NCBI GenBank assembly: GCA_036172245.1
Contig: JAYWIR010000037.1
Location: forward strand, 1,240,001-1,304,000
Direction of reading: 5' to 3'
Length of the DNA: 64,000 nt
From: Raillietiella orientalis
Taxonomy: Eukaryota
Shown: positions 3,421 through 64,000 of the stretch, piece after piece
How positions within the stretch are numbered: the first letter of the stretch is position 1
Layout: the number at the start of each line of letters is the position of its first letter
Program-made: the position numbers and the translations under genes
The notes under the pieces: generated by a model
Seen by the model: only the letters and a program-made list of their open reading frames with translations
What the model was told of the DNA's origin: nothing
The model's database searches: none

Positions 3421-4739
3421 AGCATGAAGAATGCTTCGAACACCTGCGAGCTGCTGCATTTGCTTGGTCCATGAAAATCCGACGACCTCTCGACAGCCCT
3501 CACTAAGGACAAACATGGCACATGCATGTGGTCATGCTGCAATCCACATCAGCAACAGCAATACTTGCTGAGACGTTCTGGTAATGGAAGCCTTCCAGTT
3601 GGTGTAATAGCACGACAGCGGAGTAGGAAAAGATATCTTCCAAAAAATTAGCCCTATTTTAGCTCACCCAGCTCAGACTTTTCCCTCGCTGATGATGTAA
3701 TGAAGGAAAATCATTCAACTTCATGTATCGGGGATATGAATTGCATTATAACAATTCATTACTGCTTCCTCATCATTTTACTGTTCCCGTAAGAACTCTA
3801 AGTAACAGGTAATGTTTTTTTCCCATTTTAGGAAAGGAGGAGGGAGTGTTCTAATAAACTTTGCTGAAGCGCTGTTTAAACGAGCATATTGAGTACCTAA
3901 CGCCAGAATTCGAAGGGCGTTGTTTGTTTCCATTCATTAGCGAGCTCATCATGGGAGCTACGAACTTGGGCAGTTTCCTACCCAAGTTCGTAGCCCACGA
4001 GATCACTCTTGATATGCAGTGGAAGGAGGCTGCGGATAACTGCATGCTTTTGTATAGCTCGGAGAAGCTGCTAAAATCAATGGGATCGGATGACACAGCA
4101 GCAGTGAGTAAAAGGAAGAAGGAAATGGATCTTTCGAGAGTGACTCTGTCACCTTCGGCATTTCCAATGGTACTGCTTAACAGTCTGCTTGTATTTCCTT
4201 TTGTTTTGGAGCAGCATCGCGAAGAAGCTCCAAGTTCACGTTCTTGCATTTCGTTTGTGATCTTGTTCTATCTGGCTTTTTTTTTCTAATGAGCTCATGA
4301 ACGAAATTATTGAAAAGGTGGTCTTCTTCTAATCACTATTGATTTCACGTAACTCGGAAATGTATTTATAATTGAGGATTCGCGAACTAGCATAAGTTTT
4401 ATGCATCACTAATAAAGCAAATTTGTTACTTTACTTCAGAAATTCCGTTCACTGTCGGAAATTACGAGCATCCATCATTGAAAATAAAGAAAAGGACTCT
4501 TCTTTGAAAAACGCCTACGTGTGGTCGTTTCAGTCTCATTACAGGAAAAGCAATTGAATTCAATGAAAAATGGACATTATGAGAGGGTTTTATAACATGA
4601 GCATTCTCGAACACAAACGAAAAGGATGAGACAAATCCTCATCATCACGCAAATACAAATGCAAACGCGATCCTTATATCCTCGGGAGGATCTAAAAAGG
4701 AATAAGAATGTATAGTAACCGAACATGGTACTTGCAACC

Positions 4740-4849: not shown

Positions 4850-7800
4850 GCAGGAATACACCAATGGACGCGACTGACCAAGGAGGCAAGTTTTGCTTTC
4901 TTTTAACAGATCTGAAGACCTCGCAATGATGGAAAACTTTTGACTGGATTTCTACACAAGGAAAACAACTCGAAAATATCTGCGTCTTTTTTGTGGCAAT
5001 GACTAGAGTACAAAAAAGACGGGAAAAATTCTAAAAGTATCGGGAATAAAGGTCCTCTGACAATGCTTCTGGAAACGGAAAAGGAAACTTTCGACACTTC
5101 CTTCCAGGATTACTCTGAGAAAGAAATCCAAATTTTCCCATCCAAACAGGCTGAAACTACATGCGTTTCCTGAAGAATACGTCAGCTCTGAATGGACCTC
5201 AAAGGAGAGATCTCTGCCCGTCGCCTGTCTGTTCCATGGGAAGTATGGAAAAAAAAAAAAATCAATGGTGCACTTTGTGGCAGCCGCAAGCAATGCTTTT
5301 GCTTGCAGAAGGAGACTCTATTGAATAGCAGTCTAATGACTTATCTGAAAGACTTATTTTCGGCAGCAAGCGGATGTACTGCCTTGGAAAGGAAGCCAAG
5401 CAGTGCAATTGGGACGAAAGCAAGCGAACACCACGCATGATCACGGCAAAGCTTCCCAGGTTCCGAAAAGGAAATTAGAAGAACAAAATTGGTTGCCAGG
5501 AGCGTAATTGAGATACTCCTCACGTATGCACGCATTACTAACGTAATTAATTGGTTTGTCTACTAATGCTGCATCAGGACTGAAGTCAACATATCGTGAC
5601 AGGATTTCAGTCAAGGGGACCGCTATGCCAAGTCATCCGGGTAGGGGGCAAAACTGGCACCTCCGATTGCTGAGCCGAAAGACATGTTTCGGCAACCAAA
5701 TGCTTTTATTATTTTGTGCAGACAAAGCAGAACTGCTCTCCCGGTGAAGAATAACTCTTCGACCCGAATCCCAAAATGCTAATAAGAAGTGGAGAGGAAA
5801 TTCCAAACCAGTGCCGAACGCCTCCCATTGTGAATACCCATTTCGAATTTTTACCAACCCTGAGAGTGGTTTTTCACAATGAGACAGATTGCACCTGAAA
5901 TAAGATCCGAGCAATGCACAATACAGATTATTCATCAGTTTGCAGTCATCGCTATAAGTCCATCTCATGCTTTCTTCATCAAGCACCTTGATGAAACACA
6001 GATGGGACTTCATGGTGAGAAAAAAAAAAATTCTATAATTTCATGAGCCGAAATCAATAACACGTTTCACATCTCATAAGCATCCATGCATTCTGCACAT
6101 AGAGGGGAAAATCGGTCTCGAAGCAAAAATGATAGATGCAAACTTCATAGATCCTCCTGGATTCCGGGCAGCTGCAAGCAGTGTTGGTAGAACTCTTGCA
6201 AAAAATCTTTGCAAAAAAAACGGCAAAAGAATGTTTAGCACATTTGCTTCTTATTCAAGCATCTCTTTTCTCGGTTTCGCAAGGCAATTTGAAAAACATA
6301 AAGTACTGTACGGAACTTTCAGAAAGCATCTGACTTTTGACTTCTGTCACGGTTACGGTCCCTCGACAAACTCTAAAAGAATTTTGAGGAGGGGAAAAAA
6401 AAAAAAAACGAAAAACTTTCAGATGCGAACAAGAAATCTGTAAGCGGCAACTGAAAATGAGCTTCCCATATGCTAAATGCAGTTATAAAACTTTTACACC
6501 CGTTGAGGAAGTCTGTTCTAACTTTTTAGACACATCACAACTTCTATGGAACAATTTAATTGATTTTTTTTTAACGGCTCAAAACAAAACTTTCAAATAC
6601 TTTGGAATTTTTGTGTTGTTTTCATGCACTGATCTTTCGTGATATAGTGATAGGTGCAGCTTCCTCAAAAAGTAATTATCTCTGTATCTCTGCAGGAAAA
6701 CTTCGAGTGTACAAAAGCAGGATGGGAAAATATTGATCTGTTTTTTTTAAGTATTTCTATGATTGTCTTTCTGGTCGCTCATTTCAGAAAGAAATGTCCT
6801 CTCAGAATACTCCAAAAATGGAGGAATTAATGTTCAGAGCATAGCAACACTGCAAGGCTTTTTCAATGAGGGCAGTTGAGTTATTTCGCTAGATCTTCGC
6901 AATGTTTCCCGAAACAAGAGATGGCATGGAATCATGACAAGTTCATTTGGGATTAATTTTTCAATAGCCCCGCATAAGTGATACCCCTATGTAATTTTCA
7001 GATACCCGTTTGTAGCTTCATTATCAGTAATTGCCTCGAAAGGTATGGATGTAGAGTATTTATATGAGCATGGCAACTTCCCTAAAAACCTTACCATGGC
7101 TGCGCTTCTCGAAAGAGGCGCAATGAATGAGTTGACTTGCATTCTGAAGTTCTTGCTAGTCTCATAAATAGAAAGGGTAAAATGCTGTGTACCATTTGAG
7201 CATCGCAGACGAAATTCCAAATCGATGTATAGTACTCATTAGAATTCGAGATTGAGGAAACGTCGATGCTTATTTTTATGGGCACAGATAGCTTCTTGGA
7301 ATTTCTTACCTCAATTTCTCATTGAGCTCGCATCTCCTTGAAAAGGTAGTGCGTACTTTGGTCCGGAGACTCAAAAAGGAAGCAGCAAGGTTACTCGGTG
7401 GGAAAGTTAAACTCTTAATCTCTACCAGAGAAATTCTTCCAGAAACTCAAGCCTTGAAAACATGGTTTCTAATTGACAGCCATCAGTTGATTTACAGATA
7501 GTCAGAACACATCTCCGTTTTGTGCATTCTAGCCGATGAAAAAACAAACAAACATACACCATTCTATTCACTCTATCCTCCATATCCTCACACCCTTTCC
7601 TAGCAACTGGATCCCTGAGACACACATTTGCCTGTTTTCTTGATTAATGGGAACAAAAGAAAAACACTGAAAAGCTATTTCCGTGTTTGAAAAAAAGTGG
7701 CATATCAGTCGTACTTGCAATCTCCGGTCACGTATTCAATCTGGTGGGTGCCACTGAGTTTAGCGTGTTCCATCATGGAAAGAATCTCCAAAAGGCAAGA

Positions 7801-9959: not shown

Positions 9960-12060
9960 ATCTCATATGCATGCCTATTATTCCAGACTACTGAAATGGA
10001 TCATGTCTCGAAGACAGAAATTTATTTATCAGAAAATTCCTAGTCGACTCAGCTTCCAGAATCAAATCCATTATCTCATAGTAACCCTTGCATGAAACAA
10101 GTTTTTATTTGAGTCTGCTTAATCCTAGATTACGAAAGATAATCCATCCATTCGTTTACAAATTTTGCTGTTAAGCGTGAGGTGTCCCTATTAATTAGCA
10201 TTTCCTGATGGGAATAACTTTTAATGAGATCGATTTGTTTCGACGGTTTATCTTGCAGATCCAGTAGGCAGAATTTACTCTTTCATCCTGAACGCCATGT
10301 CATCTGCATTTTCTCATGAAATTAATAAATTGAAGACTTCCTTCTGCGTTTCACTCCTCACAGAAAGTGAATTTCTTTCCTATAGCTTTTAGACTGCAGG
10401 CTGACAAAGATAAATGCATTCCCAAAGTTCTTCATGTTTATGAAAGTTGCTGCAGGAATCAGCATGCAATCATAAATCACTTACTATGACGGTAGGGTTT
10501 AAAATACCTAGAATGTTCCTTGCATCTTGGAATTTCAGTTATCACAGTAATGCTGAACGTTAGATTATGATATGACTAGCGTGTTCCAAGATCTCATATT
10601 GATGGAATATTTTTCCCAAATTTTTGGATGAAATTTTCCCAAAAACAAAATACTGATGCGGAAGGAAGCCTGGCTGAATGAACGGAGGAGCAGAGATTTG
10701 CCAGAGGTGATTACAACTTCTTGATCTTTTCTTCAAGCCATAACACTTCCGTTATCGGGTAAATAACTGATGGATTAGCAGACTGCACTGCTTTCCTTGG
10801 TAATGGGCTGGCACCCGCAATAAGTTTCGCAGTAACTCTTCTTGACAATATTTCATAGAATTATAGAATGGTCTCGGTACAGATGGAATGTTTTTCCTGT
10901 TTTTGTCCGGAGAGTGGGAGATTAAGTTCTCTTTTGCTTGTTTTCTTACGATCCTGTAATATTTCCACGACGGCAGGCATCTTAAGAAACCAATGTTAAG
11001 AAGTTCCAATAATTTTAATCCAATGACGTGGAAAGCAATACCCTGCGAATGATCAAGATAATTATCATGCCAGGCTATCCTCATCGTCCGGTCAAATAAT
11101 CTTGTTTGTTTCTCCTAAATCCTTTAACTAAGCAAACTCGTTTTTGATAAACTAAAAGCATCCTGAGAACGCCATGTTTTTCAAGACGTCAGGCTAGCGT
11201 TGCCATGATGGCATTCCGAATCCCACAGAAAAAAAGGTGGGTGCCAACTGTTCCAAAGGACTCATCCAGCCTGATTCCCATCACAATACTGCCCATCATG
11301 ATTCTGCACAGTTCTGTATCCTGCTTTCTTTCTTTTAGAAGATAAAGATACAGATCGTCATCATTGAACAAAGAGGCAGAGCCTAAGAATTCTCACTATT
11401 GGAAAAGAAAGCAAACAAAACGTTGGGTACTGAACACGTGAATGCCAGAAATGTCCTGAAAGACGTTTCGCCTCTGGTGTTCATGGACATTTCCATATCA
11501 GGAGAGGTTTCCGCTTCGAAAGAAGGATTTACAACATACACCCTCAATTCCTTAAATGGCATGTCAAATAAATTATTGTGAAGTCGGATGCGTAACTTAT
11601 TTTGGTAATCAAAAACTGATTTAGCTTGTCTGTTCCTTCTTCCCCCCTGCCAGAGTGCAATACCAACTGTAAATAAAGTGGAATTTGTGAGCATTCCAGA
11701 TTTGAATAGGCGCTTGAAATTCTCTCAAACGTGGCGCGCAACACTCATCAGCTGAAAGACACGTGTTTTCACCAACCCATCCGATGGCATGTTTTTAATT
11801 TTATTTTGTGATGAAAATTCACGATCTCTGAACTGCTCCTTCTTCTAAGGATAGCTCGTTCTCATTCTAATCGGATTTTGTTTGGTACGCCTGACAAGGA
11901 ATTCCGGGCTGCCATTCTAATAGGAATACCAACCTCACCATTCTCCTCCTTCTGAATAAGCAGCAAGTTTGTACAAAAAGATCCCTCTCGAGCCGTTGCA
12001 TAGAAGATGTCCATGAAAGTATTTAAGTACACTTCTTCTCTAATTCTTACATTTATACAT
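9960..12060 (-). pseudogene. EVE: L protein capping (PRNTase), connector and methyltransferase domains
   Basis: HAIGWVGE (motif C Trp at 11777-11779), VGIAL/LVLH (decayed HR motif, about 11655), LFDMPFKELRVY (motif E, cf. VSV NFDFLFQATLLY; ORF 11383..11694), HLFFCGIRNAIM (connector; ORF 11189..11371), AV*KL (catalytic Lys at 10386-10388), EVFNLL. Confidence 0.7.
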
Positions 12061-12259
12061 ACTACCAGAATGACAAACTAACCACGTTATGTTCATGTCT
12101 GGCTGAAATCTCATTTTGACTTGGCACAGTAAAGCGAACTGTGATGCAAGGCTGCTAGCTGTGATTGAATAATCGACCGTGAAAGGTCAATGTCATTGAT
12201 TACATAATGCTAAAGCATACATCTACAAGCTTTCCTGCGAGACATCTGGAGTCCCCATT

Positions 12260-14200
12260 TTCTTAATGCTGAAATCCTGCGGACCTATGGGATCCCGAAA
12301 TATTCCCAGGAATTTTCGCAAGTGATGAAGGTAGCAAAAATGTACGTTGAAGTTGGGCACCGACTCGGCGGAATTGAGAAACTGCGAGCTGTGGGCAAAG
12401 ACAGGAAAAAATTGCTCGCATGCACGCCAGGTAGCTGGTTCGATCGCACCATTTGCTTCCAGCGAAAAAGGACTTATCTATTAAGATGCCCCATCGCCAA
12501 TTTGAGCATCCCTTGCATTCCCTCAATTTGAAGTCGTTCTCAGAGATTTCACAGCAACCATGCAGGAAATTCAAATTCCATCGATTCCGTTTTTTTGTAC
12601 TTTGGTTTTCTCTACGAGTCTGAATTTTCAAAAAGTGCTCCAAAGTTTTCTCACTGCAACGATGGAACCAAATCCTGCCGATCACCGGCGATGAAGAAAT
12701 TTCATGGCCATTTGATCAACTAGAAAGTTACACAATCATCGAATACGGTGCTCGGCATCAGCTGCTTTGGTCCTTCGTTCATAGAATTTTCACTTGGATC
12801 ATGGGGAAGAAACTACAGTATAATTTCTGAACTGTGGCACTGGAACACATACCCTTTTGATCCGTCTTTCGAAACACTCAGCGCTGCTACTTGGAATGAC
12901 GAAAATCGGTTGTCTTTTCGGAACTTTCCAAAAAGTCTTTCGCCCAAATGCAGCAAGCAAGAGAAACCCTCTCATAAAATTTGATGGAGGAACTAATACT
13001 GGAACTCATGCTTTCGACCCAATTCCGCAGTTTCCAAAACGTCTTTTGTCTGCCGACAGATTCATCCGAACGCCTTATTCAGGTTCCCTTTACTCAGCAG
13101 TTCCAGATTCCTTTGATTTGAAGAGACCTCCACATTCAATCCACGCGATTTGAGTCGACAGAGAAGCGCCCACAGCACTCATTTAGACCTGGACAACGAT
13201 TCCTGCAATGTCCAGCAATCGACACGTGCCCTACTTGAAGAAGACACATTTGAGATTTTCTAGGAGCCTCCACACTGTATGCATGAGAAACAGATGTGAT
13301 GGTGGTTTCCATGACGTTGCTCACTTTCGGAGGAAACGGGCATCATAATGATTCGATAGAGCACGAGATGTACGAAGAATGTAGCACCATTCTGAAAATT
13401 GGTAAAGCATTGCGTTTATGGCTCACCGCTGTCTGAAAATCGATTCCTTGCCAGTAAGATGCCAAAAATGAAAGAACCTCAGGGAAACAAGAAGTTCTGT
13501 TTCTCAGCATGCAACTCATGCAACCCTTGCGCCCCATTGCCAAAATCATGTTTGGTATAAGAAAATGAAATGCTTTCCTATCAAATTTTTAAAAGCGGTG
13601 CCGCTCGCAGCAGAGAATTCCCCAATATCCCAGCAGCAGCAACATGTGCTCAATGGCTGATGTAGATATCTGAATGGAGCAATAAAATCACTTGATCAAC
13701 TAGAGTAGAAAAGATCTTCAGAAATTATAAACTCATAAGGTGAACTGATACCGATACTGAGCACTTCTGCTCATGAATTGTATTGGGATCATCCAAAGTG
13801 GAGCATCTCTGAAAGTAGCAATCTTTCAAACATCCATCGGAACGGGCATCATGGTTGTGACGAAACCGAAAAGTCACTCACAGCTGGATGCTGCTTTAAG
13901 TAGGATTAGATCCGTGCAAATCTGCTGTGGACAATTCTTCAAATAGCAAAGGAACTTTGTAAGTTTTGCAGATGGCCTTTGGCTCATTGAGGATATCCAT
14001 TACAGAGTGGGGTATTCAAGAGCGTGGAAATGTTCCCTGATTCAAATGGCCACCCCAAAAGGAACAATTAGGAAATCGTTGATTTTATTCGATTCCGGAG
14101 CTTCTTTGGCTCGAATAAGTTAACATTTCTGAACAAGCAGCAACGAAAACAAATTAAATTTTGGAGATTCCTCAGCCTAAAAACTGAGGTAAGCTTCTGT
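12260..14200 (+). pseudogene. EVE: L protein, RdRp motif B through capping domain
   Basis: GHRLGGIEKLR (motif B GGIEGLR; ORF 12322..12531), SLGSWG..YPFDPSFETLS (cf. LGG..FPDPVTESLS; ORF 12748..12984), PDSFDLKRP (cf. DP.SLN..RP), DFLGASTL..GGFHDV, IITHKV (HR-like), AIFQ (motif E-like). Confidence 0.65.
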
Positions 14201-33000: not shown

Positions 33001-33049
33001 TCTGAGCTCCCTCGTCCAGTTCTCGTCTTCAGAATAGCTCGAGAGCTAG

Positions 33050-49699: not shown

Positions 49700-51050
49700 T
49701 GTGTTTTTTCTTTTTTTTTTTGAAATTTTTGTAACCATCTTCCGAACATTTCAAAACGAGGATCCAAACAAAATTGAAATTGAGATTGCTCGCGTCGGAG
49801 ACTTTGTGGTTGAGGCTTCCGCGCGTGGCACCATGCGTCGTGGGATCGAATACTCCGGCAGAAACTGACGCCACTGCGCCGTTGGGTTCCGAGTTTCTCC
49901 TGCAATGGCGCTGGTTGGCCGAGACATTCGGGCGTGGCACCGGTGGTCCCTTAAGCCGGAGGCCCCTGATGAAGGCCGGAACAATGGGAGTCGACCTTCG
50001 GGTTCTTCCAGGAATCAAGGAGTGGGGAGTTCCCCCTCCGGTCGTACAACGGAGAGCGGACCCCCTTAGCGGGGGTACCCTTCCGGTTTCAACATGGAGC
50101 AAGGAGCCCTCACGGGCACCTATCCAGTTGTTTAAAGGAGCGGACCCCTCCTGTTGCGGGGGGATCCTCAAGTAGCCGCCTCTTCAGAAGAGTGCAAGGA
50201 AGCGATCGAGAGCGATCCCCCTGAGGGAAGCTGCAGCGCCCCTTCTGAATTTCGGAAGCTTCCCTTCGGGGTTCTCTTCAGAGGAGTGAACAGGAGCGGT
50301 TCCCTTGTGGGTTCCCTCCGGAGAAGAAATTCCTACTAGCGGATCCTTTCCGGTTCCCTTCGGAGAAGATGAAATGGAGAGGACCACGTTTCATCCCGGG
50401 GGGTGTCCTTCAGGAGAGAATGAGGAAGGAGATTCCCTTCGGGGTTCCCCTTCAGAGACAATCAGAGTAGGAGGTGTGATCCCCCCTTCCCAAACGTGAG
50501 AGGAACGGACTCCGAGCCTTTCCACAAAGCCTCCCATTCCATGGGTCAGTCGTTACAATAAACCAAATCCAGTCCATCAAAACAAATTCCACACCTGCAG
50601 AAGCTTCTACGATTGGATGAAACCATCTTGACCTCCCATTCATCTAATTTACAGAATACCTCGTAGTCAGATTTTCTGTCTCCACTTCACAGTTTCCGCA
50701 TCTGTTGACGTCCAAGCATTTTAATTTCTCACTGGACATTCTCCACAATATTTTTCTGTCCAGATCTTAATAGTCCCAGGGCATTTCGACAGAATAACTG
50801 CACTTTAAGAGTCTTACTTATCACCTTACATTATCCAACTCGTATCAGCCTATACCCTTTTATAAACATAACCAATTCTGCTCATATACCAATCGATTGA
50901 TCATGGCTCTCCTACTCGTTATTACTTCTTTATCGATCACCATTCTTATTAATTCCTTATCCGTAATAACATGGTACGCCATCAACCTTTACCTCGCCTA
51001 CGTCGGAGGCATTTGTGATGAGTTGATATAATGACAAAATTGTCACCTAT
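49700..51050 (-). mobile_element. Tx1/L1-type ORF1 (gag-like) remnant with a low-complexity Pro/Glu/Gly-rich tail
   Basis: VKVDGVP, GYRLIRV, GQKKYCGEC and RCGNC knuckle remnants, then a GC-rich imperfect repeat encoding SPEG/SPKG/NPEG units (about 49900-50500). Confidence 0.55.
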
Positions 51051-51249
51051 CAAGATTCATAATGTCACATTTGGAGTTCCCTCCTACTACTGGTATGTCG
51101 AATATTCTCATCAAATTTGTATCATGAGCTATGGAACTAAGCAATCAGTGTTGTCTGTGGAACACAAGTGGAATCATCTCTAGTGGAAGCTCTGAGAATG
51201 ATCAGCATCTGACTCATATTTTGGTTGAGAAACTTTTCTTTGAGTAGCA

Positions 51250-53260: not shown

Positions 53261-55149
53261 CAAAGAATGCCAACGAATTTAAAATTTATATAGATAAGTT
53301 CGTTAGCAGTAGACTTTGTTTCTCTGATGTCTCTGTGCCAATTCAAATGTGGTCTTTAATCAGTGGTACCCAAATGAGGCATTCAGTCTTCCTTCATTAG
53401 CACACATCAGATGGACCAGAATCGAACATAATTGTTTACGAAAATGTAACAAAAACTTAATCATTAAGTAGACTACACTTGGTGCATCCCATCTATTAAA
53501 TGCATCTTTTAGTCAAATGCCAAGTTTAGGCTAGTAATAACGAAAAAGCCAGTTTCCTTCCCTATGACATTTTGTGAGCTCCAGAAAATATCTGCTTGTG
53601 GTTTGCAATTTGAGTTATGCTTATCCTAAGGTGACCATCAAATGCATGAAATGCAGATGACACAGCAGCAAATAGGATTGTCATTAAGGAATGTCTGCTG
53701 ACTCTCGAAATGAAGGAAAGTAATGCTTCCTTCTTCTATACATATTTCGACATCAAGTAACGAAGAAGGTGCAGATGATTCGAATTTTCTCAGGAGACCT
53801 ACGAACTCATCTATCTTTACCACGTGTGACTGTAGTAAAGATCACCACGAGCAACGAGCTGGAAGATCTTTTCGATAAACACCAAAACGCTTCCTCTTGT
53901 CAAACACATGGAGGAGTGGTTTGTTTAAAACAGAACAAAAATTGGGAACTGAAGCAACATGAGCGAAACACGGAATTTCACACTTCATTTTCTTGCAAAG
54001 GATGCCGTTCTTTAGCAACCTCTTCTCCGAATGGATGCTCCGGTCACTTCCCAAGTTTGGAAGTTCTTTTGCTTCTTCCCTTCCCTCAGCTTTGCTTTCC
54101 AGTCTACGTATCACCCCGAAGACTTAGCTTAGCATCTTGTTCAGCCACATCCTGTTGCTGTAATACTGTTATACTAATACTTCACAGTCCTTTCGTTATT
54201 CCTGAATTGAACTGAATTGATCAATAGACGTATAAGATTTTCTCAATTGGGTAGAAAAATGCTAAGGAATTCGGAGGAATTCATGGTTCCTTTGAATTTC
54301 TCAACGATGCACAGTAAAACCTCCTGTAGTGAACCAGCTCTCGATATGAGGGTTTAATTGAACTTCGGTAGCATTTTTCTCACTTTCAGCAATGGACTAC
54401 TTTCGACCGATGCAGCGTCATCGAGAGAATGGAGGAAACAAATCTTTTTGTAGGTGCAGGTTTATCGGTTCCCACCATGCAATACTGTCTTACCATCGGA
54501 AACTAGATCTTCATTCAAGGCACCGTGTCCATGCTACAACTGGCAATGGCACTTGGGAACCTTTTGAAGTATTCCTCTCAAAATCATCACCCGATCCAGT
54601 GATCCAGAAAGCGAGTTCATTCAGTTTGGGGGTTTCTTGCTGAAAGGAAGAACTGATCGTAGTTCGGTGGTGCGCGACCAGTAATTAACGAGCAGCTGTG
54701 ATTCTCAGAGTTGTTTCCGAAAGTTCCCCAAAGCAAGTTTGAGGTTTGAGTTTATCACTAAGGCAAGCTGAACCTCCAAAGGAAAAATTTCCAGGAATTC
54801 AGTCTGGTTAACTGAATTTTTGTAAGCAGAGATTGCGCTCTGACATACCATTGGGAAGTTCTCATGTCGCCAATTCATGCTTACGGTTGCCTCACTGAGT
54901 GAAAAATAAAAACCCCATAGGAAGATCGTAGGAATTTATATGTGACTGGGTTCGAGAAATTTGAGGATACAAATCTTGCCGTCGACCTCATGAAAAGTGA
55001 AACGGCTACTGAAACAGAAAGCTAGGAGGAGATGTAAATAGCACGCGTTTCGTCTCAATGAAGAGTATTTTTGCATTTCACCTCAACGGCAGAAAAAAAG
55101 AAAAAATGTGCTTTACCCCAAATAAATTAATAGCCGGTTCCAAACCAAC

Positions 55150-56520
55150 TGCCTCAAACACCATTTTCTTTGCCGTGTGCTCACGAAAGGCTACTTATGC
55201 CTATTACTGTTGCTCTCCGATGAGCTTAGCTTAACAAGAGACCATTACACTGGACAACTGAGTTATTGCTTTGCTTCCTCGAAGAATACGAGAATTTAGG
55301 AGCAAGATTCCCCGACGTTTTCGACTGCTTCTCTACTGAGTTCCTGTATTAGCTCCTGAGTTCGTGAGATAAATTGGTATGCAAGACCAAATACACACCG
55401 ATACATTGCCATGTTGAGTGTTATTTAGTTCCACCACATGAATTAGGGACTGCAAATCGCTGGAAGTTACCTTTTCCACTCTCACTTCTCAGACTGTTAG
55501 TATTTGCACCTTTCTCATAGCCACAGCCTTCATTCAGGCATCTTTCAAGACCCTTTTTTTCCACCATCGTGAGCCTCCTTGAGGAGAACTTACCATTCGT
55601 TGCTTTTTGATTGGAATCTTCACTGTTGGTTGGTTCGTGTCTTTTAAGTGGGTAGCTCGAACGAAGCATTTCTTCTGAATCTCGAGAGCCCAGATATTGC
55701 CAGGTATCGCACAGGCAAGTTTATTCTCATACTAAGAAAGAAATTTAGCATTCTTGTACACGTTTCGTCAATCAGGCATTTATCAGGAATTTTTGCAATG
55801 GGATCTCAGCAAGGCGAGCTGCGAATTCCTTCGGATTTCCTGCATACCCTGCCAGCCTCTTTTTATTGTGGTTACTCAACAAGGGCAGCTCATTAAAACT
55901 TCTATGTCATCGGATTATGATCAATGGAGCCAAACCCAAATGTTCCTGCTTGCCTGTCCATGTCCCAGAAAGCACACCCGAATGAGCTACACAGCACCAC
56001 ATTCAAGTTTCCCAATCATCGGACTGACGTGACTTTCATCTATCAGAATTTTGGTCCCCAAATGCACGTTTTCAGGTCATTGCCATCCGGCTATCAGCCT
56101 TTTTGAGATTGTCAGCAGACATGAGGGATTTTGCTGAATTTTTGGAAATTTGTAGATTGCGGTGGAAGGAAAGTTTGCGTGGCACTATAAATCTAGTTTT
56201 AGTAATAGAATCTTGGCTGTTCATCTACATAGGCTATTTCCTCATCTCCTTGCCACAGAACGAAATTTGCATCTTTCCTTTTGGCACTGAATTATAAGAG
56301 GGAGAAGAAAAAAAATAGATAGTATTCGAATATCCGATGCCTAGCAAGAAATTTCTAGGAATGTTGTCTTCCTGTGTATCATATTCGGATGAGTATGCGT
56401 GTTCTTCCAAACAGAGTTTCTCGAGGCAAGGAGATGATGGAGAAGTCAGTTTCTGTAAAAGCGAATGAGTTGCTATGGATCGCAGGGCAACCACTTGTGA
56501 TTACCAAATTTTGCCCTTCT
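55150..56520 (-). pseudogene. EVE: orthomyxovirus PB1 RdRp, quaranjavirus-like motifs
   Basis: RSIATHS (cf. RRAIAT/S) and TQEDNIPRN (motif A) in ORF 56234..56494, SPMIGKL (motif B), S*SDD at 55906-55914 (motif C), YKNAKFLS*YENKLACAIPG at 55700-55760 (cf. YQDGKFVSQYG...RP), QGGSRWW (cf. SDGG.N.W). Confidence 0.65.
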
Positions 56521-56699
56521 GATTTTTTCCCATAAAAAGAGCAACGTTCGCAGAACACTGAATTGTTTCCTCCCTCTCCAAGAAAAGCTCAAGTTCATAC
56601 ATATTTGTTTATTCTGCTTATTCATACCTGTATGCCTTTTTTTTTTTCCTTTTCAAAGATTTTTTTTCCCTTTTCAAATGAATAGCAAATTGCTGCCGT

Positions 56700-59300
56700 A
56701 GCAAATTGCTGTTGTAGCAAGCGATCGCGTCGTTTGAGTAGAATGTCTCGCTTTGAGTACGAGACGGCAAAAATTGGTTACTCTACCTTGTACCATCAAA
56801 CTGGAAATGCACTTCCCGTATGGAATCGAATGCGATTTTTGGAGCTATCGTGGAAAGTTCTCGAACATGGTTACAAGAACTCATTTCAACTGCTGTTTTT
56901 TCTCATCAGAAATTTAGAAGAAAAATTTAAAAGAAAATGTGGAAAGTTGGAGTTTTGATCTTTAAAAGACGACCTGGTGCAAAGTGCACCGTCACCTCAC
57001 CTGCAGTTATGATTAAAAGCTCCATGAAGAGCAGCATCATTTCTTCATTGGATCACAAGTCGGATGTGCGTGACTGTCAGTACACCAGGATGAATGAGCA
57101 AGCTCTTCGTCGCTTGCTAGCACGCAAAAGATCATTGGGCTTTTTGTCGATAGGAAACTTTCGTCGGAAACGAGTCGTTGGGCTCTCAGACGGACAGCTG
57201 AGTTCCGGAGTCGGGCGTCGGACCTCAACTGTCATAGAAGTAGAGACTCGAGGACCGAGTTCATCGCTTGATTTCCATTGCAGCCTCTACTTGAAATCGA
57301 CATCTCATTCATCAGCCCGAATGAACAGCTTTTAGGAAATGGAAACACAAGGCACCCAAGCTCCCGTCAGGAATCCAGGCTATTCGTCTACAATATAATG
57401 GGAAAACTGGAGTCACAAGGCACAATGTAGTATTTGGGCGATTGATGGAGGATATGATCTCAGATTGCATCTCATGAAGGTAGGCTGCAGTGTCTCCGGG
57501 AAAGAACCCCCCAAAAACGCTCTTTTCCTTCCAAGTGTTACGTAGACAGAATTTGCACTGCCAGTAAAGATACTTTCAGAACAAGGAGACCTCTCTTTGC
57601 TATACAAGAAATACGTTAGAGGATCGACAGCTTTTCTGTAAAAGATGTTGTGCAAAAGAAGTGCAAGTGTGCTTTCCCGCCTTCCTGGATGAGCATTTTT
57701 GATACTGAGATGCAAGTCATGATCAAGTCTCTAGATGGACAAGAGCACAGACTCCTAAGTTCTGACCCGACTCCCGAGCTGTAGATTCGGGGAGTCTGTG
57801 TGAAACTGTTTTCGTTGGGTATTGTGTAAAGTTTTCAATCCCTCTTTGAGATTTTTCGCTAATTCTAGTGCCACCAATTATTTGACGTCTTTATGGAATG
57901 AGAAAAGAACTTAAATAGGCCGACAGAACACACATCTAATTAGGTGCTGGCAATATCGAAACAGTAATGATTTTTTGGTGTGCAGTGAATATCTATCAGC
58001 ATTGAGGAATAAGAAAAGCAGCTAAAATAATGGATGCTGAGAAAAAGTGAAAGCGATGAGGACTTTCTAGAACCGGAATGAGAATCCGCATACATTACTC
58101 GTGTGCAAGTAAGACAGATTTGGGATTTAAAAGACAGCAAATATGTAGTACAAGTGTGTGGCTGGCACAGATTCGATGGAAAGTTGCATGCTCCCTCTGC
58201 ATATGACGAATACGTCTTTTGTGTTATGCTTCAGTTCCCATCAGAAGTTGCTGGTAGCATGAAACCTTTCCCATAACTGGTTATTGTCTAACTACAGACT
58301 TCCCCACACTTTTCACGTTTGGAGAAGGCTGAATCAAAAAGTGCTTCGAGTTTGAAGAAAGGGTGCACCTTTGTCAGAATGCATCGAATTCGTGTGCTCA
58401 AAGAGTTCAGATCAAAATATTGTCGGAAATCAAAAACGTTTAGTAAAATGTATTCCTTTGCTACGTTGTTTATGAGTCTATATATATGCTGCGGCAAATT
58501 ATTATTATAATGTTAATTCCGAAGGGAAGAACCTTCTTGCGTTTACAAGAGCTAATTCCCCAATATTTCTAAAAATTAGTTTCATTTCCTAAAAGCCGAT
58601 TTAAAGTGAGAAATCCCATTTTAGAATGGTTTCCAGGACTGCGGGTTTGGAATTATTGCTTTTCTGGGATGTGAGATAAGGCAGTGGAAGAAAGAGAAAT
58701 GGTTGCAGAAAATCATAGTACTACTGCATTCCTTTCCAGCAATGATCACATCAGGAATAGTAATGCTCTGCAGTGAAAAATAATATTCAGAAAAAGACTT
58801 CCGTTGGTAAGGAAAAAGAGATCATGATTGATCCTTGACGCAGAGACAAGGTGAAGGATGCTCCGACGAGATTCGAGATGAGCATGCTGCTAGGGGGGTA
58901 TTACCGCAAAATCAGATCTGCTTCAGGTGCTCATCTTAAACCAAAGAGTGTCCAATGCTACCACGAGGGTGGAGGAAATAATACCAGACAAGAATCATTC
59001 AGTGACAGCGCTGAAAGCGAATTCGGAACGCATGTGAGAAGTGGCAACGAAAAAAAGGAGCTGATCTCAGAACTCACCTCTGCGGCAAAGCTTCCAAGTT
59101 TTCTTGCTTCCCTGTCAATCTTATTCGTTCAAAGTTTCGTTTCCTGGAGCGCAATGTTCCCAGTTTCTTCCCCGCTTAAACAACTTGGAACAATAGACGT
59201 GGCAAGGCGGCGGTACTACAAATTTGTGCTCCATGAATAGTAAAGCAGAAGGGTTTTTCCGACTCGTGCATTTTCTTAGACATGGGTTTCTGGATTGAAC
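56700..59300 (-). pseudogene. EVE: L protein RdRp through capping domain
   Basis: EMKLIF..NARRFFPSELTL, ILLNVFDFRQY..VHPFFKLEALFD (motif A; ORF 58288..58497), AEGACN (motif B), LELAKNLK, LLHNIFYRKAVDPLTYFL (ORF 57413..57715), LAHSSW (ORF 57037..57228), TGSAF. Confidence 0.72.
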
Positions 59301-59649
59301 TCGCTGTCTCAGCGAATTTTGAGCCGTAGAAACATAGAAGTTCTTCGTTTCTCACACACCGTGCCAGTCAAAGTATAGACTGGCACTCTTGTTAACCAGG
59401 GTTTGAAAACTGAGATGAGAGATAGGCTCTAAAACATGAATCCAGATGCAGTCCATACGATGTATGGTATAAGAGCTTATTTTCAGTTCAAAAAATAACT
59501 ACAAACAGGTAAAACCCCAACTTTCTAACGATAACCTTGCGTATTATAAATTTAGCGTCAGAATGGATAATACTGTTTTCGAATTTTTTAATCGCCCTTG
59601 AAGACAGAGAGCAGTAATGAGCAAAGACCAACACTGTAGACGTCTACTC

Positions 59650-60650
59650 TTCAATTTACGTGAAACTTGGCGATTCCCTGTCTCTTATCATATTGACAAA
59701 AATTGTCATTCTGTCTAAATCAAATAGGCAAAGGATTTCAGCCTTGTACGATGTGTTTTTTTTTTCGAAATGCCTTCAGTTTTCTCTGTTGATCTACTTG
59801 TTTCTCCAAGAATGATTTTTCTCATTTGATGGAAAACAAGGAAGGATTTGTATACACCCAAAATACCGTTTTTAATCGTATACGTAAATATGGGATTTTC
59901 TACTCATCAACTGTTGCGGAATAATGACTGGGATTTTTTATACGACCAGGGATTTTTTCATTTTTTTTTCGCAACTCTGAAACAATTAATAGGAATAGGG
60001 AGCTTCAGAGACACGACATCATATGCTTTGAGTTTCTCAATTTGCCACTGAATAGGTTCTTGTCATCCCATTCAGTACAGTATGCATCACATAGTGTCTC
60101 TTGTATTTTCTGGCACCAAGGGTACTTCCGAATTGATTGAATTTCTCAATGGTGAAAGATTAGCCCCCGATTCCGTACATTCCAAACGAAATTTTTTGGA
60201 TTGTGATTATTCAAACGAACTCCTTATGAAATCCAGGTACAAAATGTTCCACTGCTCACTTTTCAGCAAAAGCTCCTCTCCACATCTCAAACAGTCTACC
60301 AGCACTAACAGAGTTTGGAGATTTCTAAAAGCTTCCCTACTGAATGACACCCAAAGTCTTCGTCAAGAAATTGTTTTTTCAGCAGTTGCATGATTGCCAA
60401 CTTTGTTTGAGACACTTTTCTCAGTAACAAAGGAATAAATCCAGTTGACTCTGAGATAACACTCTGCTCGTGAGAGTCATCAAATTCCAGAAATTAAGAT
60501 CAAGGGGGAGACAAATGAATGTTTAGGATATTTCAGAATCTCCTACAATGAAAAAGCAATGACTGATCTTGCTTGTAAATAGATAATCAAGACGATAGAT
60601 GACCAAGAACACCGAGTCCACTTGTTCCAACTGCCCCAGCGGCAACAAGT
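59650..60650 (-). pseudogene. Possible second PB2-like EVE
   Basis: VENPIFTYTIKNGILGVYK at 59847-59903 (cf. [20 protein letters not shown]); VPGFHKEF upstream (cf. YSGFVRTLF). Confidence 0.35.
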
Positions 60651-61049
60651 AAAACAACCATTAACGTTTCCCTAATATTCATTTTTTCAATTCCTTTCTT
60701 AGCCTTACTTAAGCAGTGGCCACCCATCCTTTCAGAAGAAAATTTCATTTTAAGTTAGATAACTTTAAGTAAATTATGACTTATTTTTCTAATAAACTTT
60801 AAAGATTTTACCAATCATTTCTAATGTTCCGATTTTTCACAAATTTCCTTTTCTAAATATTCATCTTCTATTCTTCGTAATAAACCATATTTAGAGAGAT
60901 ATTTTCTACATTTAAAAAATATTATTATTCTACCAATAAATAATGGAACAATAGTTTTTATTAATATTACAATAGCAAAACCACTTTTTTTTGGAATTGG
61001 ATTATCATTATCAACCGTGTCTTTTCTTGTTTTTTCTCGAGTATGTTTA

Positions 61050-61195
61050 TTTGCAATTCAATGAAAAGCATTTCCTAATTGACCAACCAAACTCATTGAT
61101 GCTAAGGAAGTATGACTAATATTAGCAATAACATTACTTGTTCCATAAGAATTAATGAAATTTGTTCCCCCTAATCTAAAAAAGTATTTTATAAA
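61050..61195 (-). pseudogene. Membrane transporter fragment (MATE-like), code 4
   Basis: YFFRLGGTNFINSYGTSNVIANISHTSLASMSLVGQLGNAFH(W)IA. Confidence 0.3.
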
Positions 61196-61439
61196 GTAAA
61201 ACAAAATAAATTAGTAAATGTTCGGATTAATTAACGTCATTCATAAATATTGAAGTGCTAATAATTTAGTTTATTTCATTCAATTGGCATTCTATCATCA
61301 AAAAAGAATATTGATAATTTACTTCGTTGTCGCATAATTTCACTCCGTCCTAAATGTTAGTTTTGTGTAATTGTTTTCTTTTAGTTCAACCAACAACCCT
61401 TAACCACAACCCTTTCTACCCTATGTGTTATTTTAGGCG

Positions 61440-61820
61440 CTATGTTACCTTTTTATTACGTAAAATCTTTGAATCGCGTATTTTACCTAAATTGAGATTC
61501 TCACACATTTCTACTGTTTTATTATTTGGGTCTCACTCTAATCTATAAGCATTTGAAGCATCAGCATAAAAAATATCTGACAAATAATCACGATTATCTG
61601 CATCTACAAATACATTGGTTCCATAAAAAACAGTACAAGCCCTTTCAATCATATAATGATAATTATTATCATGTGCATTAAATCTATATGATGGATTAGG
61701 AACAAAAGCACAAGTATCAACAATTTCTCAATCTAAACCACCATTACTAGGTATCTCACCACTATCTAATAATGAATTACCACGAATAGTTTTAATATTT
61801 GTTCCGTTTATAATGTTGGT
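61440..61820 (-). pseudogene. Phage tail-fibre-like C-terminal fragment, code 4
   Basis: About 125 open codons if TGA=Trp; begins NGTNIKTIRGNSLLDSGEI (the GTNIKTING.SLLG.G motif of phage tail fibres), has two internal TGA and no TGG, and ends TAG at 61440. Confidence 0.65.
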
Positions 61821-62163
61821 TGATCATATTTATAAAGTTGGTGCTATCTTTGGAGCAAATGCTACTAGTTTAGGTTTTACTACTTTTTTAACAGATAAAT
61901 TAGAAGGTAATGTTTTAAATAAAGATGGAAATACAACAGAAGAATTGGTTTCTTCAACTTTTAATGTAAAACAAAAAATGAAAAATCGAATCGAATTTAT
62001 TTAATTAATGAAAAGCACGAGCAGTAGATGCACAAACACCCGTTAGTGATAGTGAAAAAGATCCTGATTTAGAGTTTATACAAACACCAGATGAAGTAAA
62101 TTGTAGTTATATTACTGATATGTTTTCAATTCAAGCCTTATATAGACGTGATTTCGAAATTAA

Positions 62164-62418
62164 TTTTTATGCTGATCATACATATACAATTTTCGTGAAA
62201 AATTTTGGAAAATTGAATGATTAGTTGGTGATAAGGATAAACAAATTCGTCAATCAGATAAATATTATACTTATGTTGAAAATATTCGTGGCAAAAAAAA
62301 GCAAGAAAAAAATCCCATTTTAACTGAATATAATGCAATGTTAAAATACCATGAAAGTCATTATGTTATTATTGAAAAATGAATAAAAGAAATGAAAAAA
62401 GGTGAAGTATCAACATAA
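62164..62418 (+). pseudogene. Hypothetical protein C-terminal fragment, code 4
   Basis: 85-codon frame with three TGA (62173, 62218, 62380), ending EK(W)IKEMKKGEVST-TAA. Confidence 0.5.
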
Positions 62419-62447
62419 CGGGAAAAAAAAGAGAAAATAAAACTAAT

Positions 62448-62875
62448 TTAGAACGAAATACCATCACTAGTTACTTCCCCTGTGAAAATATTTGAAAGTT
62501 CAGACATTGATGCAAGACTACTTTCAGTGATTGTTCCTTGTTCATTTTGAGCACCACTAGTTCCTGGTTGATTCCCAACAAATACTGCAATTTGCTTTTC
62601 TCTATCTTTCACCCTTTGCAGTCTTCCTTTTATTTTGTCATATATGCCACCTTTTTTAGCTCTAGCTTCTATTTTTTTAATTTGATCTAATCTTTCTTGT
62701 TTTGTGTTCTTCACGTTTTCTTATTTCTTTTCCTTTATTGTTTGTTGTTTCTTCTTTCAACTTTTCATTTTTCAAGTTCTTTATCTGCTTGTGTGAATAT
62801 ATCACCTGCAATTGCACTTGGAATTGCTCCAGCTACAATTGCTGCACTTATTAATTCTAAAATCATCATCATAGT
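62448..62875 (-). pseudogene. Hypothetical protein with hydrophobic N-terminus, frameshifted, code 4
   Basis: MMMILELISAAIVAGAIPSAIAGDIFTQADKELEK(W)KVE, then a shift into ORF 62448..62714. Confidence 0.4.
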
Positions 62876-63324
62876 TATCTATTATCCTTTCATATTAAAT
62901 TAGATCTCTTTATAGAGATATAATACCCATGAGGATAATAATATATTTTTTTATTTTTTATTTGTAAAATCTTGATAATAAATAGTTATTATAGATTATA
63001 TTATAGATAACCTTTCACATTTTGTAAAGTAGATTGCTTCTTAATGATTATTTTTTTCTTTTCTACCAGTTAATTCTGCTGCTTGTTGATTTGCATATGT
63101 TCGAGGTTGTTCCCATTTTGTTTTGCATCTTGAAATTATTATAAATTTGGCAAATATAAATATAGAAGTAAAAAAATTAACTGACACTGTTAATCTTGCA
63201 AATCGCAATCTTGCTAATCCAATTTAAATATTGTAAAGATATTGATATTTTAAGAAATAAAATTGTTGAATATAATAAAAACATTGAAAACACAACAAAA
63301 CAAAAACAATAGTTTATTAATAAA

Positions 63325-63975
63325 ATGAATGAATCACAAAAAAATCAAAAAGAATATTTAAATCAAATTAAAAACAACGAAATAGCGCTTAAAAATGATG
63401 AAAAACAAATCAAAAAATTGAATGCAGAATTATCGCAATCACAAAAGAAATTTAATGCAATTCCGCGAGAAATTGAATTTTCCAATTTAACAACTGATAA
63501 ACTTGACCGTTATATAATTAATTTTAATAGTGATCTAAAAGAAACTAATAAACAGCTGACTGAAATAAATGGCGATAAGTCTATTGAACTTTGCGACAAG
63601 TTATCAGATGTAGGTAAAAAATCAAGCACTTATATTACATTGCCTTTAACTGGTATTAAGATTGTTTTAGGAAAAATAACAAAAGATACGATTTTATTTG
63701 CTGAAGAATTAAATAAAACAGCACAAAAAATTAATATTTCAAGTGATAATTTACAAAAATTTAGATTTATTGCTAAAAAAATTGATGCATTTCAACGATT
63801 AGGAATTAATATCAAAATCCTGGTGGAGAATTAAAAAATAGTGAAAGTATTTCTTAGAAGTAAAAAATGCATTATCTCAAATAACAAGTGAAACAGAAAA
63901 AAGTAACATTATTTTTAAAATTTTTGATTATAAGTTAGGTAGTCAAATTGCTCTATTATTATTTAAAAAATAGTT
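63325..63975 (+). pseudogene. Phage tail tape-measure protein fragment
   Basis: ORF 63325..63834: DKLSDVGKKSSTYITLPLTG, AEELNKTAQKINISSDNLQKFRF, DAFQRLGINIK; continues after frameshifts as GGELKNSESI/FLEVKNALSQITSETEK..IF..KLG, typical of siphophage tape-measure proteins. Confidence 0.75.
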
Positions 63976-64000
63976 CGGAAACAATAAATATAACTAATAA

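Follow-up and report, generated by a model that had tools for sequence, protein, structure and literature searches.

Remnants of two Spiroplasma prophage types joined to eukaryote-like DNA in a Raillietiella orientalis contig

How did DNA that appears to use the genetic code of Mollicutes come to lie in a contig of Raillietiella orientalis (JAYWIR010000037.1), and does it belong to the chromosome of the host? The DNA in question forms the end of a 64,000-nt stretch (positions 1,240,001 to 1,304,000 of the contig), the whole of which is referred to here as the window. An earlier note on the window had explained it as a recent capture of symbiont DNA. The block is probably a non-functional fossil instead, consisting of Spiroplasma prophage-rich DNA that was joined to a host chromosome and decayed there neutrally.

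Extent, origin and genetic code of the block

The AT-rich block occupies the last 3.4 kb, from ~60566-60603 to the window end at 64000, and has a GC content of 0.21-0.29. Per kb, its GC is 0.28, 0.28 and 0.23, compared with 0.37-0.53 in the rest of the window, which is the 60.6-kb left flank. All 26 of the sliding 300-nt windows with GC < 0.30 lie within 60701-64000 and none in 1-60700, which confirms a sharp compositional block at the window end. The window contains no N, and the block is joined to its flank without a gap.

In the left junction zone (60566-60603, no strand), host-like DNA (GC ~0.4) meets Spiroplasma-derived DNA. The left limit of DNA homology is 60597-60603 (blastn, four references), protein-level homology reaches ~60566 (tblastn, minus-strand ORF) and, in an alignment to locus L086, the signal fades left of ~60600. 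The block is indeed present at 60660, where its start had been placed, but the real start is ~60-95 nt further left.

Spiroplasma similarity was absent from the 60.6-kb left flank (blastn, tblastx), in which only 12 stop-to-stop ORFs reach at least 150 aa. The block adjoins ~60 kb of non-coding DNA of eukaryote-like (animal-type) composition. None of the 90 ORFs of 47000-60700 had a Pfam match at E ≤ 0.01, and the EVE array said to be adjacent was therefore not confirmed. Neither was the WO-type insert whose shredding the block was thought to mirror, as 36601-60600 gave no match to WO or other phage DNA. Among the 114 window ORFs, one has family matches (TPR_12 and MIT, each under its cut-off). 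No homologue was found for flank ORF 60305-60493, and a search for internal repeats of at least 60 nt, aimed at identification of the left flank, returned none.

Searches with the block led to one genus. Matched records were Spiroplasma phage in the phage collection (4 of 4, E 6e-105) and Spiroplasma citri in the plasmid collection (10 of 10), and 5 of 5 Spiroplasma genomes had a match (best E 4.6e-218); no organism other than Spiroplasma was matched in the phage, plasmid and genome searches. This confirms the Mollicute origin claimed for the block. The donor had been described as of Spiroplasma/Hepatoplasma type, of which the Spiroplasma part stands. Since every match is to a Spiroplasma prophage or phage-like particle, the donor, as judged from these alignments, belonged to a Spiroplasma clade carrying both of the prophage types described below. 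By the same alignments, four of the five pieces that make up the block (A, B, C and E; 72-86% nucleotide identity) are homologous to two Spiroplasma prophage types. For pieces A and B, identity to Spiroplasma phage MaM-2019a and to prophage copies of it is 72-86%; for pieces C and E, identity to a second prophage, found in genomes G002 and G001, is 84-85%.

All three in-frame TGA codons that could be aligned fall on a TGA (Trp) of the reference. By codon alignment, they are at 62218-62220 and 62380-62382 in piece C (both plus strand) and at 61728-61730 in piece A (part 3, minus strand). About five others are in frame and lack an alignable homologue (60584-60586, 61058-61060, 61533-61535, 61824-61826 and 62762-62764). 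The 'W' at ORF starts 62009 and 63842 was discarded as TGA = Trp, because in both places it is a frame artefact downstream of a frameshift. The claim of at least six TGA codons in Trp-like contexts thus holds for the alignable three, for which the proposed comparison with Trp in homologues agreed throughout. Several frames of 84-173 aa are still open under code 4. Taken together, these data support the description of the block as fragmentary code-4 Mollicute DNA with a gap-free join to eukaryote-like DNA.

Composition of the mosaic

The block is made up of about five pieces of 0.23-1.25 kb from two prophage types, and not of pieces of 150-700 nt as first thought. The first type is that of the phage-like particle element of Spiroplasma poulsonii NSRO/MSRO-Br, 'Spiroplasma phage MaM-2019a' (~19 kb, OL689226.1; bioRxiv 10.1101/2021.12.09.471767). 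The second is a prophage of siphovirus type, of which several copies exist in G002 (Spiroplasma endosymbiont of Antitype chi, OZ026467.1) and G001 (locus L082).

Piece A (1.25 kb) is collinear with MaM-2019a, where its counterpart is 4215/4252-5445. Part 1 (60566-60754, minus strand) is the 5' part of the gene for a small membrane-anchored phage protein, truncated at the junction and homologous to CDS 4038..4367. It shows 73-80% nucleotide identity to loci L086, L001, L085 and L084, and 59% identity over 59 aa by tblastn (E 1.7e-15); the reference CDS has no PHROG or Pfam family. Part 3 (61440-61826, minus strand) encodes the C-terminal third of a 400-aa phage protein, tail-fibre-like or annotated as a connector, whose homologue is CDS 5080..6282. 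A 'NIKTI.G.SLL' stretch is conserved and the C-terminus diverges; identity to L001 and L084 is 82% over 97-110 nt. Under code 4 this 129-aa ORF is open to its stop, and under code 11 it breaks into three fragments.

Between these parts lies a variable stretch (60764-61650, minus strand), where the phage has its 210-aa membrane protein. The flanking homologous parts are 959 nt apart, compared with 906-942 nt in L084, L086 and L001. The middle stretch resembles the 210-aa protein only at BLASTP E 0.31 and has no homologue by Pfam, PHROG or tblastn, no match in a DNA search of 79 genomes and no relative among viral contigs. It contains a 129-aa code-4 ORF (60821-61210), previously labelled MATE-like. 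Identity as a MATE transporter was not confirmed, as the ORF has no Pfam family at E ≤ 0.01 and no homologue by any search. The block had been said to switch gene and strand every few hundred bases. That is so for gene fragments, although three of the pieces named (membrane-anchor, 'MATE-like' and tail-fibre) together form a single collinear phage segment.

Piece B (61831-62189, plus strand) is a 359-nt internal fragment (~120 of 1073 codons) of the gene for a 1073-aa hypothetical phage protein. It is inverted relative to piece A, has two 1-nt deletions and is 84-86% identical to its relatives (E 6e-105 to 1e-118). The MaM-2019a counterpart is 12239-11884, within CDS 10881..14102. The 73 matches listed, from 15 of the 80 family genomes, all lie within query 133-490, and none of them crosses either end of the piece (80 genomes scored). 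Both ends are therefore true breakpoints, and the A|B and B|C junctions are absent among the 73 matches listed (15 genomes with the gene). At the B|C junction there is a 2-nt overlap. Piece B is also shorter than the truncated copies among the matches listed (at least 590 codons), in a search that favoured long matches.

Piece C (62188-62420, plus strand) is the 3' two-thirds of a 162-aa ORF located directly upstream of the large terminase gene in the siphovirus-type prophage. It is 84-85% identical to G002 and G001, and has two conserved TGA = Trp codons as well as small indels; at 62416, TTA of the reference is replaced by TAA. The neighbour of this ORF in the reference is TerL (phrog_9, E 1.2e-153); the 162-aa ORF itself has no profile family (PHROG/Pfam).

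Piece D (62421-63122, minus strand) is an AT-rich orphan stretch of 0.7 kb, with a bacterial gene layout that can be read directly from the sequence. On the minus strand, the 3' end of one ORF (63122-63041) is followed by an AT-rich spacer with AAAGGA, a motif like a ribosome site, and by a small gene with an ATG near 62872 and an N-terminal hydrophobic helix; a frameshift splits this gene into ORFs 62735-62878 and 62448-62720. DNA searches gave only matches of 21-117 nt and at most 47 bits, in 39 of 79 family genomes, and these were set aside as AT-rich chance matches rather than a source. Protein searches matched none of 80 family genomes, and no homologue was found in a set of 5.8 billion proteins, nor a relative in viral and metagenome contigs or the ESM Atlas. 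Four phmmer matches from 1.84 billion proteins were rejected as repeat-inflated, the three that were fetched being long repetitive proteins. A tRNA or SINE relic was also rejected (no tRNA, no Rfam family). No source was found in these searches for piece D or for the middle of piece A, which was counted against a nuclear location.

Piece E (63123-64000, plus strand; at least 0.88 kb) comes from the tail tape-measure gene of the second type of prophage, of which it covers the 5' part from ~codon 8 up to the window end, where it is cut off. It is 84% identical to G002 (E 4.6e-218), whose reference tape-measure ORF matches phrog_1533 (E 5.9e-29). Window ORF 63313-63834 matches tape-measure family phrog_167 (E 3.6e-4), and the tape-measure piece named in the earlier note was correctly recognized. 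Seven indels are present in ~880 nt (deletions of 14, 6, 90, 1, 1 and 1 nt and one 1-nt insertion), together with a premature stop, TAG at 63310 for CAA in the reference. On this alignment, piece E is best described as a pseudogene. Pieces B and E have two and four 1-nt indels, respectively; four of these six fall within or next to a run of A or T and may be sequencing errors.

Pieces C and E keep the order and strand that they have in the prophage, with a spacing of 0.7 kb compared with 7.8 kb in G002 and 4.4 kb in G001, and because of this there were possibly only three independent donor segments. In addition, G004 contains a decayed junction of both prophage types inside a bacterial chromosome (L074), where the 1073-aa gene of the first type is fused directly to the tape-measure gene of the second, with strands as in the window. 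As such a locus exists, the shredding need not date from the capture.

It is quite possible, at a little under even chances, that the block is host-chromosome DNA whose piece order was inherited from one contiguous donor prophage region, already scrambled and deleted in the bacterium. L074, the retained order of pieces C and E, their variable spacing among bacteria, the internal collinearity of piece A and the resemblance of piece D to an intact bacterial gene neighbourhood all fit such an origin. The two junctions missing from the listed matches of the 15 genomes with the gene speak against it, as does the shortness of piece B, in so far as a search favouring long matches allows. As this 359-nt internal piece lies between two unrelated junctions, with the 2-nt overlap at B|C, we lean slightly to ligation of several fragments at integration rather than a patchwork inherited ready-made.

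Decay and residence in the host chromosome

The nearest bacterial copies are 13-14% diverged from the window, and the end branch of piece B (0.23) is the longest among 78 rows (median 0.015). With the seven indels and stop of piece E, this leaves the 'recent' capture of the earlier note unsupported, and the event was presumably old.

The direction of change is informative about where the block has evolved. Private changes were scored only at positions with agreement among no less than 90% of the bacterial copies. Window-private substitutions comprised 75 AT>GC and 29 GC>AT, compared with 143 and 175 in the bacterial copies (Fisher P = 1.6e-6), and the GC-ward shift recurred in each of three non-overlapping subsets (B, P = 0.016; E1, P = 0.004; C plus E2, P = 0.014). 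Even the decayed bacterial copy L074 has changed in the opposite direction. In 63345-63783, AT>GC:GC>AT was 28:8 in the window versus 6:21 in L074 (P = 1.4e-5), and in piece B it was 14:5 versus 1:9. The GC of window pieces C and E (0.22-0.24) exceeds that of every reference copy (0.17-0.21); that of piece B (0.280) is inside the reference range (0.239-0.287). Since the window runs 75:29, against 143:175 for bacterial copies and 6:21 for the decayed one, these GC-ward changes argue for evolution outside Spiroplasma. A donor lineage of higher GC could in principle have given the shift instead. Decay as such is seen in bacteria too: in-frame stops are found in 7 of 66 bacterial copies of piece B and in 3 of 5 of piece E; decay and mosaicism thus occur inside Spiroplasma genomes and are no proof of nuclear residence. 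Changes by codon position, relative to the nearest copy, were 15/12/20 in piece B and 25/20/42 in E1. As a test for neutral decay this was abandoned, since bacterial private changes are evenly spread as well (0.36/0.30/0.35).

The same data bear on an assembly chimera or contaminant, in which the block would be the decayed prophage graveyard of a living Spiroplasma, misjoined to host DNA. Such an artefact would show what is seen at the window end, namely a single junction and a block that runs off the edge, and its contents would not be out of place, as real Spiroplasma genomes hold decayed mosaic remnants of both prophage types (L074) and broken bacterial copies are common. It is nevertheless unlikely, given that the window has changed GC-ward where the bacterial copies, decayed ones among them, show either balance or an AT-ward trend, that no N run marks the join, and that neither piece B junction occurs in the 80 family genomes scored, 73 of the 73 matches listed ending there. 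The left junction is probably a real chromosomal junction. The presence of only one junction within the window, with a block that continues past its end, was counted against a nuclear location, as was the finding that no host transposon interrupts the block.

For the favoured reading, a fossil in the host chromosome, the donor would be a Spiroplasma symbiont with both a 19-kb particle phage of S. poulsonii type and a prophage of siphovirus type. Its DNA may have entered by end-joining at a chromosome break and would then have decayed neutrally in the host chromosome. A function of the block is very unlikely. As the donor uses TGA for Trp, the host could read the donor's genes correctly only after they had changed.

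A more specific version, in which the patch formed inside the nucleus of the host from the free DNA of two different Spiroplasma phages, including one with known packaging into particles, and A, B and C-E were separate fragments ligated into one break, is improbable. If it were true, symbiont-released phage DNA would be a preferred substrate for transfer, in parallel to phage WO in Wolbachia, and the block would record past infection of the host lineage by a Spiroplasma with both phages.

A recent capture of Spiroplasma/Hepatoplasma-type DNA, shredded at entry into 150-700 nt pieces, is very improbable because, despite a composition that is still very AT-rich and several code-4 frames that are open, the copies are too diverged (piece B having the longest branch in the tree), the tape-measure gene is too broken and private substitutions are already too strongly GC-ward, while all matches are to Spiroplasma and the pieces, three of the named ones forming a single collinear segment, are of 0.23-1.25 kb.

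Relation to known systems

If the junction is real, the block would be a further example of an animal chromosome with Mollicute DNA in it, and a marker of past Spiroplasma infection in the host lineage. Its source would then be prophages of the S. poulsonii-type particle-phage lineage, compared with Ixodetis-clade chromosomes and plasmids in ticks. The block also represents a small natural experiment, in which AT-rich code-4 DNA drifts to host composition. Testing the direction of substitution against bacterial copies, including a decayed one, can help to tell nuclear inserts from contaminant contigs without reads.

Pieces A and B are homologous to CDS 4038..4367, 5080..6282 and 10881..14102 of MaM-2019a, and the order and spacing within piece A are equal to those of the phage. 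The block is not a complete element of this type with head, portal and terminase genes: ~1.6 kb of the 19 kb is present, piece B runs in the opposite orientation to piece A, and the sequences of the middle gene and of the fibre-like protein's C-terminus are not related to those of the phage. Similarly, pieces C and E correspond to the ORF upstream of the terminase gene and to the tape-measure gene of the siphovirus-type prophage in G002 and G001, with order and strand kept. Where G002 has 7.8 kb between the two (terminase, portal, head and tail genes), the block has the 0.7-kb orphan piece D instead, and its tape-measure gene is disrupted.

Nuclear Wolbachia transfers (NUWTs), including prophage WO regions, are often phage-rich, host-joined, rearranged and decaying. 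The present block resembles them in being endosymbiont phage DNA, probably joined to host DNA, rearranged and decaying; it differs in that the donor is a Mollicute with TGA = Trp.

The statement that nuclear transfers from Mollicutes are much less documented than those from Wolbachia needs amendment, as Spiroplasma cases are in print for ticks (PMC11617991) and ants (PMC13320244). According to the account of ant genomes, 37 of 497 curated HGT loci are from the Spiroplasma/Mycoplasma donor group (PMC13320244). Like those loci, the block would be Mollicute DNA in an arthropod nuclear genome. The case highlighted there, murQ in Camponotini, is a conserved, expressed gene, whereas the block is a pseudogenised patchwork without sign of function (PMC13320244).

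In Ixodes ricinus and I. inopinatus, nuclear genomes contain cassettes derived from Spiroplasma ixodetis, which are read as symbiont-to-host transfer (PMC11617991). As described there, the cassettes are 70-90% identical to Spiroplasma, lie in host contigs and are interrupted by host sequence, cassette A-long having 26 pieces in ~19 kb (PMC11617991). The main text of that paper uses none of the words phage, pseudogene, frameshift and TGA (PMC11617991) and, in the parts of the literature on Spiroplasma nuclear inserts that were covered, no mention was found of Spiroplasma phage genes in a host genome, which does not imply absence from print. The tick cassettes were mapped in ten ticks, compared with one junction seen here in an assembled contig (PMC11617991). 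The block resembles them in consisting of Spiroplasma-similar DNA, in several pieces of differing homology, probably joined to host DNA (PMC11617991). The donors differ, being of the Ixodetis clade with chromosome and plasmid matches in ticks, and here apparently another Spiroplasma lineage, represented by two prophage types (PMC11617991).

Spiroplasma origin of the AT-rich block

The first 60 kb of the window have a GC content of 0.37 to 0.53, and its final three kb drop to 0.28, 0.28 and 0.23, respectively. GC < 0.30 was reached in 26 sliding 300-nt windows, every one of them within 60701-64000; the window contains no N. Searching 60660-64000 against a phage collection (blastn) matched four records, all of them Spiroplasma phage from S. 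poulsonii NSRO (82 to 84% identity, E 6e-105), and the ten records matched in a plasmid collection were all from Spiroplasma citri. The element concerned, MaM-2019a, is a phage-like particle contig of S. poulsonii of about 19 kb (bioRxiv 10.1101/2021.12.09.471767). When its 1073-aa hypothetical protein was used as query, 169 related stretches were found in the chromosomes of species-representative Spiroplasma genomes and 70 loci (L002-L071) were retained, the carriers being S. phoeniceum and endosymbionts of Lasioglossum, Seladonia, Sarcophaga, Antitype, Polydrusus and Glossina. Some single chromosomes hold at least 20 loci of this gene (for example, OZ026468.1 and NZ_OZ034909.1). Much of the sequence of these genomes consists of prophage copies, and donor DNA taken at random would therefore probably be of phage origin. 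The stretch 60400-64000 was matched in all five genomes searched from carriers of the gene (best E 4.6e-218); blastn and tblastx against the fetched loci found no Spiroplasma-like sequence in 1-60500.

Neither of the neighbours proposed in the earlier note was confirmed: a Pfam search of window ORFs, which gave one weak signal among 114 long ORFs, did not bear out an 'EVE array', and a phage DNA search of 36601-60600, aimed at the 'WO insert', was without match. The Pfam signal (22084-22446, minus strand) combines TPR_12 (E 3.6e-6; 27.5 bits, under the 30.1-bit cut-off) and MIT, likewise under its cut-off. GC skew is 0.325 in 33001-34000, beside a 4-kb GC-rich block (34001-38000, 0.51 to 0.535); other GC-rich stretches are 18001-19000 (0.53) and 30001-33000 (0.49).

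Five pieces of the block

In place of pieces of 150-700 nt, five pieces (A to E) were delimited, including a collinear piece A of about 1.25 kb. Piece A begins at about 60566/60603, ends at about 61826 and has its genes on the minus strand; it is collinear with MaM-2019a (OL689226.1) 4215/4252-5445. A variable middle separates the first part of a small membrane-anchored protein from the C-terminal third of a 400-aa protein, which is annotated as connector-like in MaM-2019a and carries a fibre-like 'NIKTI.G.SLL' stretch. Gene and strand do switch between gene fragments, but the membrane-anchor, 'MATE-like' and tail-fibre pieces, taken earlier as separate, all belong to this one segment, and the 'MATE-like' piece matched neither MATE nor any other family. 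The homologous ends of piece A lie 959 nt apart in the window and 906 to 942 nt apart in three references, so the unmatched middle (60764-61650) is interpreted as an allele that occupies this position but has diverged. The fibre-like protein's final 90 or so residues (61440-61700, minus strand) and the whole of the adjoining gene (60764-61650) have no detectable similarity to the reference phages, although their flanks do; in this phage group, they look like a module that is hypervariable and possibly serves host recognition.

Piece B (61831-62189, plus strand) consists of 359 nt from the interior of the 1073-aa gene, which is carried by 15 of the 80 scored family genomes. It is inverted relative to piece A, from which it lies 6.4 kb away in the phage, and has two 1-nt deletions. 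All 73 matches listed in family genomes are confined to its limits (query 133-490), indicating that both ends are real breakpoints. With a 2-nt overlap it meets piece C (62188 to about 62420), which derives from a second, siphovirus-type prophage and covers the 3' portion of an ORF of 162 aa that immediately precedes the large terminase gene in the Spiroplasma prophage locus L082. Piece E (63123-64000) starts at about codon 8 of the second prophage's tape-measure gene, whose reference ORF matches phrog_1533 (E 5.9e-29). Relative to the reference it shows deletions of 14, 6, 90, 1, 1 and 1 nt, a single 1-nt insertion and TAG in place of CAA. Pieces C and E are ordered and oriented as in the prophage; their separation is 0.7 kb, compared with 7.8 kb in the Antitype chi endosymbiont and 4.4 kb in another Spiroplasma genome (G001).

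Between them, piece D (about 62421-63122) is AT-rich with a bacterial-gene-like layout, and its source was not found by DNA searches of family genomes or by protein, viral/metagenome contig or ESM Atlas searches. It includes a small orphan gene-like unit (62448-62878, minus strand), in which an AAAGGA motif precedes an ATG triplet by about 12 nt. The encoded product would have a hydrophobic helix at its N-terminus and a middle rich in Lys and Glu; the unit has one frameshift and one in-frame TGA, and none of the databases searched yielded a relative. The top phmmer matches of the piece-D ORF (P0001, P0002) were rejected as long tandem-repeat 'proteins' with scores summed over 6 to 12 stretches; such matches can reach E < 1e-10 without homology.

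Genetic code 4 is supported, as all three alignable in-frame TGA codons (62218, 62380 and, on the minus strand, 61728-61730) fall on TGA (Trp) in Spiroplasma copies. The count of at least six was only half verified; about five further in-frame TGA lie in parts without an alignable homologue, and two apparent tryptophans at the beginning of ORFs are artefacts caused by frameshifts.

Formation and residence of the block

The patchwork could have been produced by ligation of separate pieces during integration or by transfer, as a whole, of a donor prophage region that was scrambled beforehand. Such junctions are present in bacteria: in L074, a prophage locus of the Polydrusus formosus endosymbiont (G004:C1:512250-515689), positions 3-1958 fuse the 1073-aa gene of the MaM-2019a type directly to the siphovirus-type tape-measure gene, and the junction is decayed (longest ORF ≤ 82 aa). 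The internal collinearity of piece A and the conserved arrangement of C and E also favour whole transfer. In favour of ligation, piece B takes a very short internal stretch of its gene and is bounded by two unrelated joins, neither of which occurs in any of the 73 bacterial matches listed; ligation at integration is the account to which we lean slightly.

Bacterial copies have in-frame stops too, in 7 of 66 cases for segment B and in 3 of 5 for segment E, and private substitutions of bacterial copies are even over codon positions. Together with L074, the broken copies show that dead, scrambled prophage mosaics exist in living Spiroplasma. Decay by itself does not decide between nuclear and bacterial residence. 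L074 can serve directly as a bacterial control for phage mosaics in decay.

Substitution direction, unlike decay, discriminates. Private changes, scored at sites with ≥ 90% agreement among bacterial copies, were 75 AT>GC and 29 GC>AT in the window versus 143 and 175 in bacterial copies (p = 1.6e-6), and each of the subsets B, E1 and C with E2 (E1 and E2 being parts of piece E) showed the GC-ward excess on its own. L074 was strongly AT-ward, with AT>GC:GC>AT of 6:21 versus 28:8 for the window in 63345-63783 (p = 1.4e-5) and 1:9 versus 14:5 in piece B; the long-branch bacterial copy L061 gave 11:13. GC-ward drift, the opposite of the Spiroplasma bias, is expected of AT-rich DNA in a genome of about 0.4 GC and fits nuclear residence, as do the 60.6 kb of non-coding DNA of eukaryote-like character that adjoin the block without a gap and the end branch of piece B, the longest among 78 rows of its tree. 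On these sequence comparisons the block probably resides in the host nucleus, with the left junction alone inside the window. A chimeric join is unlikely. A higher-GC donor could also account for the GC-ward shift. Four of six 1-nt indels lie in or beside A/T runs and could be sequencing errors.

The earlier observation is therefore largely real and its interpretation right in kind, but wrong or unproven on the number and size of pieces, on the MATE piece, on a Hepatoplasma-type donor (all matches obtained being to Spiroplasma), on the neighbouring 'EVE array' and 'WO insert', and on 'recent' capture, given the long branch of piece B. No function is expected of the block, which serves mainly as a record of past Spiroplasma infection and as a test case for distinguishing nuclear inserts from contaminants by substitution direction.

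Relation to known Spiroplasma inserts

Spiroplasma DNA in arthropod nuclear genomes is already in print. Nuclear cassettes of Ixodes ricinus and I. inopinatus are 70 to 90% identical to S. ixodetis and are subdivided into as many as 26 pieces (PMC11617991); the main text of that report does not use the terms phage, pseudogene, frameshift or TGA. In ants, Spiroplasma/Mycoplasma is given as donor of 37 of 497 curated HGT loci (PMC13320244). A literature search for Spiroplasma phage genes in host genomes found no such report, which does not prove absence. The block resembles the tick and ant cases in carrying Spiroplasma-group DNA; its prophage source and donor lineage are its small novelties.
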